Shown here one piece after another: positions 30,990 through 39,145 of a stretch of 64,000 nt of DNA. Under the pieces are notes generated by a model. The model had not been told where the DNA came from and ran no database searches. It saw only the letters and a list, made by a program, of their open reading frames with translations. The position numbers and the translations under genes are program-made. Every line of letters starts with the position of its first letter. Within the stretch, counting starts at the first letter, position 1. The stretch covers positions 388,739 to 452,738 of the forward strand of contig CAWHYB010000007.1 of assembly GCA_963833555.1 (NCBI GenBank), in the 5' to 3' direction. This DNA comes from an uncultured Actinomycetes bacterium. GTDB taxonomy: Bacteria > Actinomycetota > Thermoleophilia > UBA2241.

Positions 30990-31593
30990 TGCGGACCCTC
31001 CCACGGCGGCGAGAGGCGCTGCTCGAAGCCGAGCGCCGCACAGCACCTTGCCGACCACGAAGTCGACGACGTCGTCGAGCGTCCGCGGGCGCGTGTAGAA
31101 GCCCGGCATGGGCGGCACGATCAGCGCGCCCGCGCGGCGCGCCTCGAGCAGGCGCTTCAGGTGGATCTCGAGAGCGGCGTCTCGCGCGGCACCAGCACGA
31201 GCGGGCGGCCCTCCTTGAGCGCGACGTCGCCGGCGCGGTGGATGAGCGTGCGCGTCGTGCCCAGCGCGATGTGGGCGACGCGTCGACAGCGAGCACGGGC
31301 AGACGACCGCGGCGTCGGGGAAGTTGCTGCCGCTGGCGACCGGCGCCTCGAGGTCGTCGGGGGCGAAGACGCGCGCCTCGGCGCGGGCGGCGGCGAGGAA
31401 CGCCGCCGTCACCTCGGCGCGCTCCGCCAGCGCCGAGCTCGAGCTCGTGGCGCAGCACGGCGAGGCCCATGTCGGAGACGCAGAGCGAGAGCTCGCAGCC
31501 GCGCCGCCGCGAGCGCTCGACGAGCCGCAGCGCGTACGGGGCGCCGCTGGCGCCGGTGACGCCGACGAACAAGCTGGCGGGTGGTGCGATCAC
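30986..31593 (-). CDS. ubiX: flavin prenyltransferase UbiX; frame-interrupted
   Basis: N-terminus [17 protein letters not shown]; [24 protein letters not shown]; C-terminus [13 protein letters not shown] recovered after a 1-nt shift. Confidence 0.75.
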
Positions 31594-31654
31594 GAGACTC
31601 CTTCGATGGCGTCGGCACCCGGCGCCGCCGCGAGCGGCCGCCGGAAGACTCCCG

Positions 31655-32931
31655 CTAGTCTACCGCTCGCGCGACGGCCCCATGTGGGACCGACTGCGTT
31701 GACGAGCGCCGGAGCCGCGCCACGACCGCAGGCCCGGCGCAGCGGCCAAGCTGCCGCTCGTCAGTGTGGCGGACTGCCCGGCTGTGTGGCAGTCGCCGCC
31801 GTAGCAGCTCGCCGCGCCGCCGTCGTTGTTGCCGTGGCACTTCACGCAGACCGCGCCCTCGCGCGCGGCGTACACGAAGTGGCTGGCGATGAACGCGGCC
31901 GGGTGCGGCAGCACGACGCCGTGGCACTGCACGCAGCTGTCCGCGCCGTGGCACTTGCTGCAGAGCGCGGGATCGCTGCGTCGCGGTGGTCGGGTGCGAG
32001 GCAAGCCAGCCGGCCGGGTGCGGCATCGGGAGGCCGTGGCAGTCGATGCAGAACTTTGGGTCCTTGTCGGTGTGACACGAGGCGCAGATCTGCGCGCCTC
32101 GCTGCACGACCAGCGGGCCGTGGGACTGCGTCCAGCCCGGCGGGGTGCGGCATCGTGAGGCCGTTGTGGCACTTGGCGCAGAAGCTGCTGCGTGTGGCAC
32201 TGACGGCAGTTCGCCGGCTGGTCCATGTGCACGGTCGATGGTGATCTGCGCGGTGCCCGGCGGGCACGCCGTTGACGTGGCAGATCGAGCAGCGCTGCGG
32301 CTGGATGACGCCGTTGTGGCACTGCGCGCAGATCGACATGATCGACTGCGTGCGGCCGCGAGCCGACCGGGATCGCGGCGCCGTGGGCGACCTCGGCGTG
32401 GCAGGTCACGCACTGGAAGCCGGCCTCGCGCAGGCCCTTGTGGTTGACGCGGATGTTGCCGACGATCGATGTCGCTTCTCGATCTGGCTCTTGGGGTGAC
32501 ACTGCACGCAGTTCTCGACGCCGACGTAGGTGGTGATGCGGCCTTCTGGTAGTCGCCCCGAGATGTACTCGACGATGTGGGTCGGCCGACTGCAGGTTGC
32601 GGATGAAGTAGTTGAAGACGCCCGGCTTGGTGTGGCAGTCCTGACAGCCGACTCCCGGCCGATGGTGTTCAGACGTCTTGAACGAGGCGACCTCCTTCTT
32701 GATCACGTGACACCAGCCGCACGTGCGCGTTGTTGTTGACGACCGCGAAGCCGATCGGTGACCAGGACGAGGAGCGACGCACGACGGCCGGCGATCATGC
32801 CGAGCAGCCAGGCCCGCGGTCGATGCGGATGGCCGCATCGGCCCGCGGCGTGCGGGCCGCATCCGCCGCGCGCCTCGTCGGGCGGCGCGGCCGGCACGTG
32901 TGGCTGGCTGGTCGTCGGGTCGTCGGCTCAT
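31655..32931 (-). CDS. membrane-anchored NapC/NirT-like multihaem cytochrome c, 13 CXXCH + 1 CX4CH; frame-interrupted
   Basis: N-terminal hydrophobic anchor, then CGWCH, CQDCH, CVQCH, CVTCH, CAQCH, CSICH, CRQCH, CAKCH, CASCH, CIDCH, CSKCH, CVQCH, CVKCH and CYGGDCH. I confirmed 14 CH codon pairs on the plus strand. ATG 32931 lies 3 nt after the upstream stop. Confidence 0.75.
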
Positions 32932-32934
32932 GAC

Positions 32935-33982
32935 CTAGAGCGCGCGGTGAGGATCGAGGGTGACGGCGTCGCGGCGTCGGCGTCCACTGCGGCACGCCTG
33001 CCGGTCGAGGAAGTCGTGCGCCTGCGGGCTGCCCGACTGGTGGGCCGGTGGCACGCCTGGCAGTTGGCCTGGTCGTGGCAGTTGAGGCAGCTCGTCGACG
33101 AGGCGGCGGCCGCTTACGGCGCGTGCTCCAGCCAGTCGGCCGGGTGCGGCAGCGGCACCCGGTGACAGCCGTCGCAGTATGGCGGCTCGTCGTGGCACTG
33201 CGTGCACGACTTGAGCGCCGAGCTTCAGCGCGCTGGCTGCCGTGTGCGCGTGAGCCAGTCGTCGGCGTGCGGCATGACGACGCCGCGATGACAGTCGACG
33301 CAGTCCGGCGGCGATCCGGGGACACCAGCCGGTGACCGCACCGCCCGGTCGCGGGTGGCAGGCGCTGCAGGTCGACAGGATGCCGTTCGGTGCCGTGGGT
33401 CTTGAGCCAGTCGGCCGTGTGACGTGCTGGGCCTGGCGCCCGCCGCGCGGCGCTGACGTGACAGAGGTCGCAGCGGCTGACGCGCGACCGTGCCGTCGGC
33501 CGCGCGGTAGTGGTTGTTGTGACACACCAGGCACTTGTCCATGGTCGGGTAGCGTCCGCGAGCCCGGCCGGGCACGGCGTCGCCGTGGGCGACCGTCGAG
33601 TGGCAGGTCGATGCACTGGTAGCCGGCCTCGATCAGGTGCTTGTGGTTCACGTTGATGCCGTTCTTGGAGATCGTCGGGAACAGCTTGCGTCGGTGTGGC
33701 AGCGCCGGCACGACGCGTTGACGCACCGTGCCGAGGATCGGGGTCTCGTAGTCGCCGGTGATCTGCTTGACGGGCTCCTGCAGCGCCTCGAGCTTGGCGG
33801 TCAGGAAGAAGAACGGACCCGGCTGCGATGGCACTGCTCGCAGTTGACGCCGCTGTGTGCACGACTGTGCTGGTACGCCGACGACGCTCGGCCTTCATGT
33901 TGTGGCAAAGCCCGCAGAAGGCGGTCGTCGAGGTGGCGACCAGCGCGACGCCCGTGACCACGACGAACGCCGTGACGACCAC
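32935..33982 (-). CDS. membrane-anchored NapC/NirT-like multihaem cytochrome c, 12 CXXCH; frame-interrupted
   Basis: TM (AIVVVTAFVVVTGVALVA), then CGLCH, CEQCH, CRRCH, CIDCH, CLVCH, CDLCH, CSACH, CVDCH, CTQCH, CDGCH, CLNCH, CQACH. The true start is probably a little upstream (to about 34010) after a frame change. Confidence 0.7.
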
Positions 33983-34041
33983 GATCGCTGACGATGAGCA
34001 GGCGTCGTGTCAGATGAAGGTTCAGCTTCGCTCCCGCTCCA

Positions 34042-35229
34042 CTAGTTGATCAGTCCACCGGCAGTGGGGAAGGCGTTGTGCACGGCGCTCCTGTGGCAGA
34101 GCAGGCAGGGCAAGCCGACGGCATGGGCCGTGGCCGAGCCGTGGCAGCGCACGCAGCTCGAGCTTGACGGAACGATCTTGCGTCCGTGGAACGCGCTGCC
34201 GTGGCAGGTACCACACGTGAGCCCGCTACCGCGGCCGCTGGCATGCACCTGGAGCGCGTGGCAACGCCGGCAAGCGACCGCCGCATGGGTGACCCGCCGG
34301 GAGTGGACGATGGCGTTGCCCGCGGCCGCGTTGGTGCCGCGGTGGCAACTCGCGCATTTCGTGGCAGGGATGCGCCAGGTCGCGTGCGACATCGTGTGGC
34401 ACTTGGTGCAGGCCGGGAAGCCGGGACTACGCGTCACGCCGTGGTGGAACTGCTTGGCCTTGGTGTGACAGGTCGTGCAGGCAACGCGCCCGGCGTGCTT
34501 CTGCAGCCCCGTGTGGCAGGTCGTGCAGGCCCCGACCGCCGGACTCGTGGTGTGGACCGTCTCGCGCTGGAAGATGCCGGTCGCGCTGTGACAGTCGGTG
34601 CACGTATTCGTGCCGTAGGTCTTCGCCGCGTGGCACTTGTTGCAGGTCGCCGGCTGCACGGGGATGTCCATGCCGTTGTGGCAGGACGTGCACGCTGGCT
34701 TGACCGAGTCATGATTGGCCTTCTGCGAAGCCAGCGTGCCGTTGTGACAGTCCTGGCAAGCCGGTGCCGTGAGCGTCATGCCCGCGTGGTGGGGGCTGCC
34801 GTCGGGAGAGCTGAACCCCGTGCTCACACCATGGCACGTGGTGCACGGTGCGAAGTCGGCGCCGAGATGAGGTGTAGCACCGTGGCTGAACTCGATCGAG
34901 TAAGCCCGCTGGCTCTCGTTCCAGAGGTGACAGGTGCTCGAACAGCCTGCGCTCGTGCGCCACGCGGACGTGTCTTGGCCGGGCTGATGGCAGCTCCAGC
35001 AGGTGTCACCCGGCACCGACTTGAAGTCGCTGCCGTGACAGGCCGTGCACGACGCGTCGCTGGGGCCGGTAGCGTGGCAGTCACTGCAGGCGGTGGCGCC
35101 GTCGTGCTCCCAGGTGGTGAAGGCGTGCGCGGGCGCGGCGGTGAGCGCGCTCACCGCCGCGCCCGCGCACAGCAGCGCAAGCATGGCGACAAGCAGCGGC
35201 ACGCGACCGGCGAGGATCCTGCTGGTCAT
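34042..35229 (-). CDS. secreted multihaem cytochrome c, 16 CXXCH + 1 CX3CH in 395 aa
   Basis: Uninterrupted ORF segment with SD GAGGGGG 7 nt before ATG 35229. Sec signal peptide ending AAPAHA. Motifs were counted directly in the translation. Confidence 0.85.
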   Translation of the reverse strand: MTSRILAGRVPLLVAMLALLCAGAAVSALTAAPAHAFTTWEHDGATACSDCHATGPSDASCTACHGSDFKSVPGDTCWSCHQPGQDTSAWRTSAGCSSTCHLWNESQRAYSIEFSHGATPHLGADFAPCTTCHGVSTGFSSPDGSPHHAGMTLTAPACQDCHNGTLASQKANHDSVKPACTSCHNGMDIPVQPATCNKCHAAKTYGTNTCTDCHSATGIFQRETVHTTSPAVGACTTCHTGLQKHAGRVACTTCHTKAKQFHHGVTRSPGFPACTKCHTMSHATWRIPATKCASCHRGTNAAAGNAIVHSRRVTHAAVACRRCHALQVHASGRGSGLTCGTCHGSAFHGRKIVPSSSSCVRCHGSATAHAVGLPCLLCHRSAVHNAFPTAGGLIN

Positions 35230-35291
35230 CGGGGAACCCCCTCGTAGACGGCAGACAAGCGCCACTCTACCAAGTCCTTTACGCCGGAGCA

Positions 35292-36188
35292 TCACAGCGA
35301 GATCGCCACCGACCAGACGATGAAGGCCGCAAGCGCCAGCGCCGCCAGGATCGCGACGAAGGTGATGACCCACGACACGACGTTGCCCACGATCGCGCCG
35401 CGCCCGCTGGGCGCCAGGACGATGGCCTCGTCGAGGGTCCCCTCGCGGATCCGGTTGGCGTATTCCAGTGGCCGCTCGAGACGGTAGTGATCGACCGGGA
35501 TCGAGCCGGTGAAGATGACCTTGTCGATGGGGAACGAGCCGGGCCGCCCGTGAGCGCTGAACAGGTGCACGAAGATGAAGATCACGCCCATCGCCAGCAG
35601 CGCCTCGTTGGAGTGGATCACGAGCGCGATGTTCAGGGCGATGCCCGGAAGGAACTTCGTCGTGGTCACAGGGAACCACATCATGAAGCCGGTCGCGCCG
35701 ATGATCACCGTGCCCGCCATCATCGACCAGAAGTCGAACTTCTCCCAGTACGTGAAGCGGTTGAACTGGGGGAACGGGCCCCTGCCGAAGAACCACCGGA
35801 ACATGCCGATGATGTCCAGCGCGTCCTTCTTGCTGGGCACGATCGAATCCGGGCCGAAGATCCGGCCGCGGACCTTGACCACGTGCACGCCCATGTAGCC
35901 GAGCTCAAGCAAGAAGTAGAGGATCGTGACGAGGGCCGCCAGACGATGCAGCACGCCGGCCGCCGTGACGCCGCCGATGGCGCCCATCACCCAGTGCGCC
36001 CAAGCGGCGTCCTTGTACTTGAGCGGCATGCCGGTGAACACGAGCACGGTGAAACTCGAGAGCGCCAAGAAATGCATCCAGCGATGGAACGCGTTGAAGC
36101 GCCGGTAGTGCAATCTCTCGTGCTGCTGTTTGTCAGTGCGACTTGTCGTAGAGACCTTGTCTACGACCGCGCCAGAAGTAGAGGACAC
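35292..36188 (-). CDS. FdnI/HydC-like (Ni/Fe-hydrogenase b-type cytochrome family) membrane cytochrome b
   Basis: RFNAFHRWMHFLALSSFTVLVFTG opening typical of PF01292-type cytochromes b. Further histidines lie in predicted helices (LHRLAAL, VIHSNEA, FVHLFSAH), and there are 5-6 TM helices. GTG 36188 has a GGAGGAG SD 6 nt upstream; the ORF is open to TTG 36215. Confidence 0.75.
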   Translation of the reverse strand: MSSTSGAVVDKVSTTSRTDKQQHERLHYRRFNAFHRWMHFLALSSFTVLVFTGMPLKYKDAAWAHWVMGAIGGVTAAGVLHRLAALVTILYFLLELGYMGVHVVKVRGRIFGPDSIVPSKKDALDIIGMFRWFFGRGPFPQFNRFTYWEKFDFWSMMAGTVIIGATGFMMWFPVTTTKFLPGIALNIALVIHSNEALLAMGVIFIFVHLFSAHGRPGSFPIDKVIFTGSIPVDHYRLERPLEYANRIREGTLDEAIVLAPSGRGAIVGNVVSWVITFVAILAALALAAFIVWSVAISL

Positions 36189-37008
36189 TGTGCACTCCTC
36201 CGAAGGTGAAGACAACGGCGATGAGCAGGACGTAGAACATGTACACGAGGAACACCGGGATCGACGATCGCGGTGACGTCGCGTTCACGTGGACGAGGTA
36301 GCTCGCGAATGCGGCGTTCGCGCCGGGATGGCATTTCGCGCAGGTCGCGACGATGTGCTGCTTTGAGATCGGTGCTGCGTGGGTCCGACGGCGGCAGGAT
36401 CTTGATGCGCACCGTGGCAGTCGTAGCAGGTGGCCGCGCCCACCCGACCCAGCTCGAAAGCCTTGCCGTGGTACGTGTCAAGGAAGGTCGCCGCGTGGCC
36501 GCCGTGACAGCCTTCGCAACGCGCCGTCACCTGCTCGCGGAATCGGCGGGTCGTCACGTCGACGACGGCATGCGCATCGTGGCAATCGCCACAGGTCGGC
36601 ACCTTGCCGAACTCGCCCGGCTTCAGCACAAGTCTGCCGTGGAACGAGCCGCGGTACATCGTGCCCTGCTGAGCGTGACAGTCGCCGCACGCGGTGAGCG
36701 AGGCCTGTTCGAACCATCCGCTGGTCTCTTGGGAAGTGTGCTGTCGCGACTGGAAGCCCACATGACAGCTCGTGCAGTCGAGCAGCGAGTGCAAAGAATG
36801 ATCCCAAGCGCTCGTGTCGAGGGCGATGCTCTTCGGTCACGCCGTTCACGTCGACTTGACCTTTCGCGCCAGGCCCATGACACGCGAGACAGCGGTCATT
36901 GTCACGGTTGGCCTGCGCGCCGGCGCTCGTGGGCAGGGCTGCGGTTGCGAGCGCGACCGTGATGACAAGCGCAAGCGCCAGCCGTGCAGGCGCGCGGCTC
37001 GACAACAT
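36133..37008 (-). CDS. multihaem cytochrome c, 7 CXXCH, signal peptide and C-terminal TM helix; frame-interrupted
   Basis: MLSSRAPARLALALVITVALATAALPTSAGA, then CLACH, CTSCH, CGDCH, CGDCH, CEGCH, CYDCH, CAKCH. The C-terminal helix is IPVFLVYMFYVLLIAVVFTFGGV. Confidence 0.7.
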
Positions 37009-37034: not shown

Positions 37035-38061
37035 TCACGGTGTCGTCACCCCCAGGCGGGCATGGCAGCCGCTGCACATCGTCTGCGGGTGACAGACGAG
37101 GCACGACGCGGTGCCCTTGATGGCGACGGCGCCGTGGGTGGTGCTGCCAGTCGGCGGGATGATCGACCTGGTGGCACTGGTGGCAGAAGGTCTGCTCGCT
37201 ATGACAGCCCTGGCACGAGACGCCGTCGGCCGTCGCGGCCGGTCCGTGGCTATAGCGCCAGTCGCCGGCGAAGTGACTGGCCGGTGGCCGCGCGTGGCAG
37301 GCGTCACAGAAAGCGGCCTTGTCGTGGTGGCAGCGCAGGCAGTCGCTCTCATGGGTGAGCGCCTGGATGCCGTGTGTCTTCAGGAAGTCAGCGGGATGGA
37401 CGTTGCTCGGCGGCGGTGTGGCGTGGCAGGTGGTGCACTGGTTCGGCGCGGCCTGGCCGTTGTGGCACATGGAGCAGACGGTCATCGAGACTGTCGCGTT
37501 CGACTGACCGGGCGTGGCGTGAGAGACCTGGTTGTGGCAGTCGGCGCACTGCAGGTTGTGCATCGTGACATGCGACTGGTGGGGGATCTTGATGCCGTTG
37601 ATGACCGGCGGGAAGTTGCTCAGCTGGTGGCACTGCTCGCAGGCGGCGTCGGTCGGCTTGTGGACGCTCGCTGCCATGTCGGTGCCGGCGCTCAGGTAGG
37701 AGGCCCAGATGTTCTTGCCCTCCTGCAACCGCCAGACGATGCCGTTGATGAGGCCCGGCTCGACGTGACACTTCACACAGGACACGTCGGCGTGCACCGA
37801 GTGTTGCCAGGTGCTGCCGGCGGTCTTCATCTCGTGACACGATGTGCAGTAGCCGGACGTCGAAGTCAGCCGGACGGGGATGTAGAAGACGATCATCACC
37901 ACCGCGAGGACGCCTACCGCAGCAAGTGCGGTCAGCCACCAAGGGATGCTGCGACGAACCGGCGGGGTGCGCGTAGGCGGCGCCGGCGGTGTAGCCGGCG
38001 CCGCAGGCGTGTCGTGGCCGGACGCGTGATCCGGCTCGCGGCTGTCGCCTTCGGCTGCCAT
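37035..38061 (-). CDS. membrane-anchored NapC/NirT-like multihaem cytochrome c, 12 CXXCH; one frame change near 37135
   Basis: TM (WWLTALAAVGVLAVVMIVFYI), then CTSCH, CVKCH, CEQCH, CADCH, CSMCH, CTTCH, CLRCH, CDACH, CQGCH, CHQCH, CLVCH, CSGCH. The ORF is open to GTG 38103. Confidence 0.8.
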
Positions 38062-38259: not shown

Positions 38260-39145
38260 TCAGTCAGCGAGCACGGTGACGATCACGACGACGCCGTACA
38301 GCAGGCCGACGACCCCGTTGACCGTCATGAATCCCATGCCGACCCGGCTCAAGGCCGCGTCGCGCGATGTCGACGTGCGACCACGCCAGGATCGCCGCTA
38401 CCACGCAGACAGCCGGCGTAGTAGACAAGCGGCAGTCCAAGCAGCGCGCCGGCCGTCGAGCAGGAGCGACGACTGAGCCAAGGTGAGAGAGGGCGGCGAC
38501 GAGCAGAGCTCGTCGCCGCCCGAACCTGACGGGCACCGAGTGGATGCCCTCGTCGCGGTCGAATCGAGGTCGAAGATCGCGTAGATGACGTCGAAGCCAC
38601 CCACCCACAAGCCGACGGCCACGAACAGCAGGACCGGCGACAGGGCGACGCGGCCGGTCACGGCGACCCAGGCCGCCGCCGGCGCCAGGCCGTCGGTCAG
38701 GCCGAGCGCGTAGTGGCAGAACCAGGTGAAGCGCTTCGTGTACGGGTAGGCGATGAAGGCCGCCACGACGATCGGCCACAGGTACCGGCACGGCGGCGAC
38801 AGGAAGAAGGTCGACAGCACGAGGACGCCGAGCGAGGCGGCAGTGAAGGCGACGACCTCGCCGCGCGCAGCGACGCCGGTCGGCAGCTCGCGCCCGGCGG
38901 TGCGCGGGTTGCGAGCGTCGATGCCGGCGTCGATCAGCCGGTTCAGCGCCATGGCGGCGCTGCGCGCCGCGACCATCGCCACGGTGATCCAGACGAGCGT
39001 CGCCCAGCGACGGGATGCGCTGCTCGGCCAGCACCGCGCCGGCGTACGCGAAGGGCAGCGCGTAGACGCTGTGTTCGACCTTGATGAGGCGGGCGAAGAG
39101 CGCGGGGCGTGCCGACGCCGGTGCGGGGCGTGAGGCGGATGTCAC
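38260..39145 (-). CDS. UbiA family polyprenyltransferase (menaquinone-specific, futalosine route); frame-interrupted
   Basis: LIKVEHSVYALPFAYAGAVL, NRLIDAGIDARNPRTAGRELP (Asp-rich motif), polytopic. Fragments 38264..39145 and 38398..38982. Confidence 0.75.

Follow-up and report, generated by a model that had tools for sequence, protein, structure and literature searches.

Why would a single bacterial operon carry three membrane-anchored multihaem cytochromes built on one plan, and what would they do there? The question arose from a 64,000-nucleotide stretch of contig CAWHYB010000007.1 (positions 388,739 to 452,738; hereafter the window) from an uncultured bacterium of the class Thermoleophilia, in which three paralogous NapC/NirT-type anchors had been recognized from the letters of the DNA (the original prediction). 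They are referred to here as A, B, and C. Our analysis indicates that they make up one family of extracytoplasmic c-type cytochromes with an NrfH/NapC-type head, extended by two-haem modules, and that they are old paralogues rather than recent or assembly duplicates. In this structural and evolutionary description as a whole we have high confidence.

The window has a GC content of 65 to 76%, and its six-frame translation placed 59 of 61 CXXCH motifs between 31848 and 37848 of the minus strand, with the remaining two isolated on the plus strand. In the order of transcription on the minus strand, the genes are A (37035..38061), a seven-haem cytochrome, a cytochrome b, a 16-haem cytochrome, B (32935..34025), and C (31762..32931). 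The cytochrome b and 16-haem genes are open frames in the window; A, B, and C each need more than one frame to be read, and the gene counts for these three rest on orthologue-guided reconstruction. Because plain tblastn was unable to track the frames through B and C, we relied on a dynamic programme that allows for frameshifts and matched the window DNA to intact orthologues from G003 (locus L013), a related genome. A was recovered with a single frameshift near 37146 and 217 of 327 residues identical to its G003 orthologue (66%), B with at least 15 frameshifts and 245 of 365 residues identical (67%), and C with at least 12 frameshifts and 265 of 420 residues identical (63%). Over trimmed alignment columns, B and C shared 72 and 71% identity, respectively, with their orthologues. 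Frameshift positions from this alignment are approximate and are undercounted in the transmembrane (TM) region of C, whose helix is spread over three frames in the window. Two of the gene boundaries first proposed probably do not hold: the start of B at 33982 is an internal GTG, and B most likely begins upstream, at about 34025, its start codon being uncertain, while the end of C at 31655 gives way to one that is probably near 31762 if the tail matches those of the orthologues (the uncorrected frame extends to 31660).

The assignment of the N-terminal four-haem part to the NapC/NirT/NrfH family was borne out by Pfam, TIGR03153, and PDB profile searches and, for A only, by the predicted fold. 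Intact orthologues of A, B, and C scored 47.6, 51.4, and 44.6 bits, respectively, against the Pfam model Cytochrom_NNT (PF03264; cut-off, 24.1 bits). The window open reading frame of A reached 48.4 bits; the fragmented B and C of the window fell just under the cut-off because of their frameshifts. The intact orthologues matched the NrfH model TIGR03153 end to end (positions 2-6 to 138 of 138) with 38 to 56 bits against an equivalog cut-off of 134.2, and they matched the NCBIfam TorC and NapC models weakly (20 to 30 bits; cut-offs, 310 to 478) as well as generic c7, c3, and paired-CXXCH models. In a PDB search with a profile built from 59 A-type sequences, NrfH (2j7a_C) was the best match (E = 3e-17; chain residues 20 to 150). 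Similarly, the AlphaFold model of A (pLDDT, 77), which places a helix at residues 29 to 53, matched only NrfH chains (2vr0_F and 2j7a_C) in a Foldseek search of the PDB, with a probability of 1.00 and target TM-scores of 0.57 to 0.62. All three groups have a hydrophobic stretch of 20 to 25 residues before haem 1 with basic residues on its N-terminal side, which marks a single N-terminal TM anchor, and C has in addition a long charged N-tail. The common opening that had been described was confirmed as CxxCH-x-M/I-K...S-x-H...V-x-CxxCH-x-x-PG, its Pro and Gly being invariant in all three groups; the first motif is CTSCHEM in A, CGLCHNM in B, and CGWCHVIK, without the Met, in C. With 12, 12, and 14 haem motifs, the proteins depart from the classical tetra- or pentahaem size.

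Beyond the head, each protein continues in units of the form CXXCH-x(4-17)-CXXCH-x(2-8)-H-P-x-x-W/F-x3-H, of which there are four in A and B and five in C. The modules are mutually homologous (hhalign probability, 97 to 99%; E = 2e-11 to 2e-20), in agreement with the proposed expansion by tandem two-haem modules, and share weak similarity with the four-haem head. Each unit holds two conserved histidines, sufficient for both of its haems to be bis-His coordinated, and these residues are likely the distal haem ligands; B contains 12 invariant non-motif histidines for its 12 haems. Frameshift-aware alignment to the intact orthologues, together with motif listing, returned the haem counts first given: 12 CXXCH in A, 12 sites in B (one motif being split by a frameshift), and 13 CXXCH plus one CX4CH in C. 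The latter, CYGGDCH (31786..31806, minus strand), is the last site of C, as had been noticed, and is kept as CYGG[DEQS]CH in all eight C orthologues. Across orthologues, the counts are 12 to 13 in A, 12 in B, and 14 to 16 in C. A second CX4CH site in the family, CTRSGCH, is the third haem motif of the A orthologue of genome G004 (L015:4986-5924). The C-terminus of B (window 32935-33060 and orthologues) has a conserved AH-x2-G-x-P-x-AH-x2-F segment, adding two more invariant histidines, and then a Pro/Ser/Thr-rich tail (…TPAPTPSPS…) that may be a wall-spanning or glycosylated linker.

BLASTP matches among the three G003 proteins were collinear over their whole length, with 32% identity between A and B (E = 2e-36), 29% between A and C (1e-32), and 34% between B and C (7e-56); common ancestry thus extends beyond the CXXCH motifs. 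Identity ranges from 42 to 63% between orthologues and from 26 to 37% between paralogues. A maximum-likelihood tree was built from 34 sequences that included Escherichia coli NapC and TorC and Desulfovibrio vulgaris NrfH, with CymA and ImcH left out. In this tree, A, B, and C formed separate clades (support, 99/98, 99/91, and 100/99, respectively), each with orthologues from six to eight other genomes; B and C were sisters (89/84), and NapC, TorC, and NrfH lay outside the three clades. The window branches (0.16 to 0.19) were no longer than those of their neighbours, and those of B and C measured 0.16 to 0.17 against approximately 0.23 to 0.28 in the nearest orthologues. In an alignment of 15 sequences, which drew on six genomes with five for each of A, B, and C, the invariant features were 12 haem sites (CXXC[H/K] in the case of the first), seven histidines and one methionine not belonging to the motifs, and the Pro-Gly after haem 2. 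Taken together, the comparisons show that the triplication is old: it took place before the radiation of the bacterial family concerned and, for A at least, before a second family (G032) of the class had branched off. When the decahaem cytochromes ImdcA and PdcA of the Firmicute Thermincola were added to the tree, they joined the B and C side (95/86) on long branches, which hints at a split between A and the B-C pair older than the Firmicute-Thermoleophilia divergence of these genes, a hint on which we would not lean.

B and C meet at TAG GTC ATG (32929..32937, minus strand), confirming the reported 3-nucleotide spacer between the stop of the one and the start of the other. They are separate genes, neither a fusion nor assembly duplicates, as their orthologues fall in separate clades and have their own stops and starts, and C has a charged N-tail and an anchor helix of its own. 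Depending on the genome, B ends in TGA, TAG, or TAA, and C starts 0 to 4 nucleotides downstream or overlaps as TGATG; this tight spacing indicates that the two are translationally coupled. Stop-codon readthrough or fusion was considered for the four relatives in which B and C share a frame and was rejected: all three stop codons are used, the genes are out of frame in other genomes, and the predicted N-in anchor of C would misplace the haem domain of a fused protein across the membrane.

The three genes lie in a block of cytochromes bordered upstream by a UbiA-type prenyltransferase gene (38264..39145, minus strand) and downstream by a frameshifted UbiX-type flavin prenyltransferase gene (30995..31602, minus strand). 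The seven-haem cytochrome c (36136..37008, minus strand; three frameshifts), which has a signal sequence and, at its C-terminus, a TM helix, is the c-part of a putative CbcL-like pair, the other part being an intact membrane cytochrome b of the Ni_hydr_CYTB/formate-dehydrogenase-gamma type (35292..36215, minus strand). The predicted secreted cytochrome with 16 CXXCH motifs (34042..35247, minus strand), also intact, is the constant partner of B and C in relatives. At least nine related Thermoleophilia genomes share the order UbiD-UbiA-[A, seven-haem cytochrome, cytochrome b]-[16-haem cytochrome, B, C]-UbiX-UbiE-polyprenyl synthase (IspB)-MqnE, with a Rex gene upstream in seven of the nine. The first bracket is missing in G020 (L032) and G023 (L033), where only the 16-haem gene, B, and C are found, and is present in two copies in G004 (L015) and in the metagenome-assembled genome (MAG) MFD02416 (L019). 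In three complete relatives without cytochromes (L038/G019, L039/G010, and L041/G014), ubiA is followed directly by ubiX with gaps of approximately 80 to 280 nucleotides; in six frames, one of these empty-site loci has a single CXXCH and the other two have none. Because of the empty ubiA-ubiX site and the sub-modules missing or duplicated elsewhere, the block of three to nine cytochrome genes behaves as a gain/loss cassette, made up of two sub-modules and occupying one fixed position within a futalosine-type menaquinone operon. A match to A was obtained in 11 of the 24 other genomes of the same family that were searched.

Across these nine or more genomes, no reductase, porin, or other enzyme gene was found in the cassette, which encodes cytochromes c and one cytochrome b only. 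Outside the cassette, the source genome has cytochrome c maturation genes of the CcmF/CcsA type; ResB (PF05140) was not found in it. The original prediction had suggested that the three anchors may serve different partners, and the two sub-modules, one with A and the CbcL-like pair and the other with the 16-haem cytochrome, B, and C, are consistent with this idea but do not prove it.

Beyond homology, architecture, paralogy, and synteny, we infer topology, haem ligation, partners, and the direction of electron flow, as follows. A single N-terminal helix, with the N-terminus inside, would hold the four-haem head at the outer face of the membrane, with haem 1 facing a menaquinol pocket. The two-haem modules would prolong the head into a bis-His wire of 12 to 14 haems pointing away from the membrane, with a length of the order of 8 to 10 nm by analogy with the decahaem MtrA. 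Electrons from menaquinol would then pass through the anchors to the secreted 16-haem cytochrome and on to extracellular acceptors, e.g., Fe(III) or humic matter. The CbcL-like cytochrome b/c pair is the probable partner of A. B and C probably act as a pair with the 16-haem cytochrome, and within this pair C may relay electrons instead of offering a quinol site. Such outward transfer from menaquinol to the exterior is, in our moderately confident view, the probable function of the locus.

Several observations weigh against this proposal. In NrfH, the Met of CXXCHxM is the ligand of haem 1. A retains this motif and, in an alignment that is short and gapped in this loop, carries Arg/Asn in place of NrfH Lys82/Asp89, while all eight C orthologues have CXXCH-(V/L)-(I/L/A) and no equivalents of the Met, the Lys, or the acid. 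Only B combines CXXCHxM with an invariant Lys plus Glu, a pair that resembles those of NapC (K/E) and TorC (K/D). The original supposition that all three are membrane quinol dehydrogenases is therefore unproven. The C-terminal eight-haem part of the A model had no significant match in the PDB with Foldseek and the AlphaFold model of C, made from a 15-sequence alignment, was poor (pLDDT, 52); for these reasons the linear wire is a geometry that we infer. Sequence does not reveal which way the electrons flow. Frameshifts are spread very unevenly, with none in the 16-haem and cytochrome b genes against at least 27 in B and C, and no motif explains the clustering (13 motifs, including GATC, CGATCG, and CCGG, at 31 frameshift sites). 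Menaquinol oxidation by ImdcA, as the start of a cytochrome-only extracellular chain, is itself a proposal (PMC7911101, PMC7096707), and one preprint calls the class Thermoleophilia Gram-negative (10.1101/2022.03.26.485925).

The quinol side of the head varies further among relatives. In several related genera the first motif of the head is CXXCK, e.g., CSSCKATE in A (L016:5882-6796 and L028:6906-7820). The B variants are CSLCKSHE and CGLCKSHA, with a His at the usual Met position (L016:9858-10889, L028:10829-11866, L029 on the minus strand, L032:6188-7264, and L033). Otherwise, CXXCK is the lysine-ligated catalytic haem motif of NrfA. Given CXXCK in several genera and His at the Met position in B, the ligation of what is presumed to be the haem on the quinol side is open to evolutionary change in these proteins.

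These residues bear on a division of labour in which only A and/or B would be menaquinol dehydrogenases and C, possibly with others, would be a membrane-tethered relay forming a heterodimer with B in the manner of the NrfH dimer and doing no more than lengthen or branch the wire. It refines outward transfer rather than excluding it, and we regard it tentatively, as a possibility that falls short of being favoured. The loss of the Met, Lys, and acid throughout the C orthologues, when B keeps CXXCHxM (or CXXCK-x-H) with its Lys and Glu, fits such a division, as does the constant adjacency of B and C, with their spacer of 0 to 4 nucleotides or overlap, and the presence of the two without A in G020 and G023. 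However, C retains a TM anchor and a complete four-haem head, including the invariant PG and His, and quinol sites vary within the NapC family, so missing NrfH residues are no proof of lost function. A more elaborate combination appears unlikely: a self-contained, Rex-controlled unit from menaquinone to the outside with three non-redundant anchors, in which a 26-haem heterodimeric stalk of B and C would dock the 16-haem protein to give a conduit of more than 40 haems through the wall, A and the CbcL-like pair would provide a second entry in another redox window, and CXXCK would represent a new ligation of the quinol-site haem. If true, it would be a porin-free, cytochrome-only counterpart of the potential-sensing ImcH/CbcL/CbcBA set of Geobacter, hard-wired into quinone biosynthesis.

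Flow in the opposite direction, with extracellular donors (Fe(II), reduced humics, or a syntrophic partner) reducing menaquinone, as proposed for CymA/ImoA homologues, seems to us quite unlikely. NapC/NirT proteins are reversible in principle and ImoA has been proposed to act in iron oxidizers (PMC9600427); the sequence leaves the direction unfixed, and the habitats are redox-fluctuating soils and peat. Nevertheless, bis-His multihaem chains with low-potential menaquinone fit outward transfer better, the upstream Rex usually derepresses fermentative or anaerobic-respiratory genes when NADH accumulates, and the nearest studied homologue, ImdcA, belongs to a reducing pathway (PMC7911101).

A classical NrfH/NapC role, in which the anchors would feed a soluble extracytoplasmic reductase (for nitrite, sulfite, trimethylamine N-oxide [TMAO], etc.), would account for the best database matches being NrfH, NapC, and TorC and for the label "nitrate/TMAO reductase-like tetraheme cytochrome c subunit" (JGI) or hypothetical that close relatives bear in databases. 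We judge it very unlikely, given that the cassettes of nine or more genomes hold no NrfA, molybdopterin, or sirohaem enzyme gene, that the NrfH scores are far under the equivalog cut-off, and that a surplus of 8 to 10 haems, together with a 16-haem cytochrome and CbcL-like proteins encoded alongside, is typical of electron conduits and not of enzyme anchors.

The frameshifts (three in the seven-haem gene and none in the cytochrome b and 16-haem genes) are sequencing or assembly errors and not gene decay, a reading that follows from the intact, syntenic orthologues of at least nine relatives, the high identity to them, the kept motifs, the normal branches, the window-wide phase changes, and the low completeness. 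The source genome is 2.49 Mb in 9 contigs with a completeness score of 51.6%, and the relatives, which bear the labels uncultured Thermoleophilia or Actinomycetota, are "MFD" MAGs from nanopore data. Changes in the phase of third-position GC (GC3), a measure that is independent of orthologues, numbered 2.4 per kb across the window, compared with 0.8 to 1.1 per kb at the intact syntenic loci of three relatives, and they peaked at 26 to 34 kb (11 to 13 per 2 kb at 26 to 32 kb). The ubiX, mqnE, ubiA, and ubiD genes are also broken by frameshifts. In the motif search, which was aimed at methylation-linked nanopore errors, GCTG was found near frameshift sites 8 times against 3.9 expected (uncorrected P = 0.03), which was not significant after correction for multiple tests, and homopolymer runs were no commoner in B and C; uneven polishing or coverage is the likely cause of the clustering. 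That B and C are decaying pseudogenes in the source organism, as the concentration of real frameshifts in them beside two undamaged cytochrome genes and the absence of an explanatory motif might be taken to mean, is highly improbable, since their identity to orthologues is as high as that of their intact neighbours, their branches are not lengthened, every haem motif and ligand is kept, essential menaquinone genes are frameshifted too with phase changes raised window-wide, and a "completeness" of 51.6% is reported for just 9 contigs.

Proteins of this build are common. A profile search of 1.84 billion metagenomic cluster representatives returned 1,027 matches at an E value of 1e-30 or less and 4,522 at 1e-10 or less. 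Most of the best 149 matches have an N-terminal hydrophobic anchor and a first motif of the CXXCHxM type, with haem counts from 5 to more than 130 and a mode of 12 (52 of the 149). Calling the arrangement unusual was thus too strong, as the plan of a head followed by modules is already found in the 10-haem ImdcA and PdcA and is abundant in metagenomes. In the literature searched, no description was found of the Thermoleophilia cassette, its three proteins, dodecahaem NapC-like proteins, or cytochromes in futalosine operons, and a preprint on electron export in peat concerns other phyla. CbcL homologues and surface multihaem cytochromes have been reported in 8 of 19 lake Thermoleophilia MAGs (10.1101/2022.03.26.485925). 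A fourth cytochrome with a NapC/NirT head was observed on contig C2 of the source genome (L031:8238-9644, plus strand; 10 CXXCH; Pfam NNT, 54.1 bits). It is far from the cassette, near a P-type ATPase and directly downstream of an Nramp-type Mn/Fe transporter (L031:6655-8073), with which it may form a ferric-reductase/uptake pairing.

Electron export in Gram-positive and actinobacterial soil bacteria is poorly understood. The lake-metagenome survey stated that its own searches may miss such export in Gram-positives such as the class Actinobacteria and flagged Thermoleophilia for CbcL-like genes (10.1101/2022.03.26.485925). The locus described here offers a clean, conserved set, embedded in menaquinone biosynthesis and carried by a widespread peat and soil lineage, in which three anchored proteins, each a putative wire with an NrfH head, are accompanied by a CbcL-like pair and a secreted cytochrome of 16 haems. 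It also links ImdcA, the only biochemically studied Gram-positive membrane cytochrome, to more than 1,000 uncharacterized clusters (50% identity) whose usual form has 12 haems. The A/B/C family is therefore a reasonable target for expression and structure determination, and it would give surveys of extracellular respiration in metagenomes a better marker.

Among known systems, NapC, CymA, and TorC belong to the same Pfam family and share the CxxCHxM...H...CxxCH opening with four (NapC and CymA) or five (TorC) haems, TorC providing a precedent for C-terminal extension of the four-haem head. NrfH of D. vulgaris (PDB 2J7A/2VR0), the prototype structure for the NapC/NirT family, resembles the three proteins in its TM anchor and four-haem head, and A and B also in CXXCHxM. 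It differs in having 4 haems in approximately 160 amino acids and in docking the catalytic NrfA, whereas A, B, and C have 8 to 10 more haems and an insertion before haem 4, and no NrfA-like gene is present in the cassette. The module region has weak similarity to MtrA (chain 6r2q_A; E = 1e-9) and, likewise, to a DmsE-family model. The likeness is that of closely spaced bis-His haem chains acting as insulated wires; unlike A, B, and C, MtrA is soluble or porin-sheathed, without an NrfH head or membrane anchor, and there was no significant fold match. In Geobacter, several quinol-linked cytochromes (ImcH, CbcL, and CbcBA) serve extracellular acceptors of different potential (PMC4251993, PMC6295460). 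The CbcL-like pair in the present cassette recalls this set, but the analogy is functional only, the Geobacter proteins being of unrelated families at separate loci rather than paralogues in one operon.

On sequence comparison, the closest characterized relatives of A, B, and C are ImdcA and PdcA. ImdcA (Tfer_0070/TherJR_1117) is a membrane-anchored decahaem cytochrome that has been purified, with low-spin haems and probably one high-spin haem (PMC7911101, PMC7096707), and its redox window extends from approximately +100 to -300 mV (PMC7911101). Its sequence, taken from the supplement of the ImdcA paper, shares 27 to 29% identity with A, B, and C over ImdcA residues 20 to 341 (BLASTP E = 1e-17 to 1e-20), and the soluble PdcA shares 23 to 28% (E = 2e-13 to 5e-19). 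Against the A/B/C profile, ImdcA gave an hhalign probability of 99.8% (E = 7e-28; 234 columns, haems 1 to 9), and it is itself above the Pfam NapC/NirT threshold with 54.8 bits. Like the three proteins, it has an uncleaved N-terminal membrane anchor, a NapC/NirT head, and two-haem modules with ...H...W...H. The 10 haems of ImdcA and PdcA compare with 12, 12, and 14 here, a difference of one or two extra two-haem modules. In the Firmicute Thermincola (T. ferriacetica and T. potens), the anchored and the soluble form have one gene each, dispersed along with those of other cytochromes, whereas the present locus places three anchored paralogues in one cassette with a CbcL-like pair inside a menaquinone operon. 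In A, B, and C the ImdcA type is found lengthened and triplicated, within a lineage that is new for it and in genomic surroundings that are notable; they do not amount to a new principle or kind of system.

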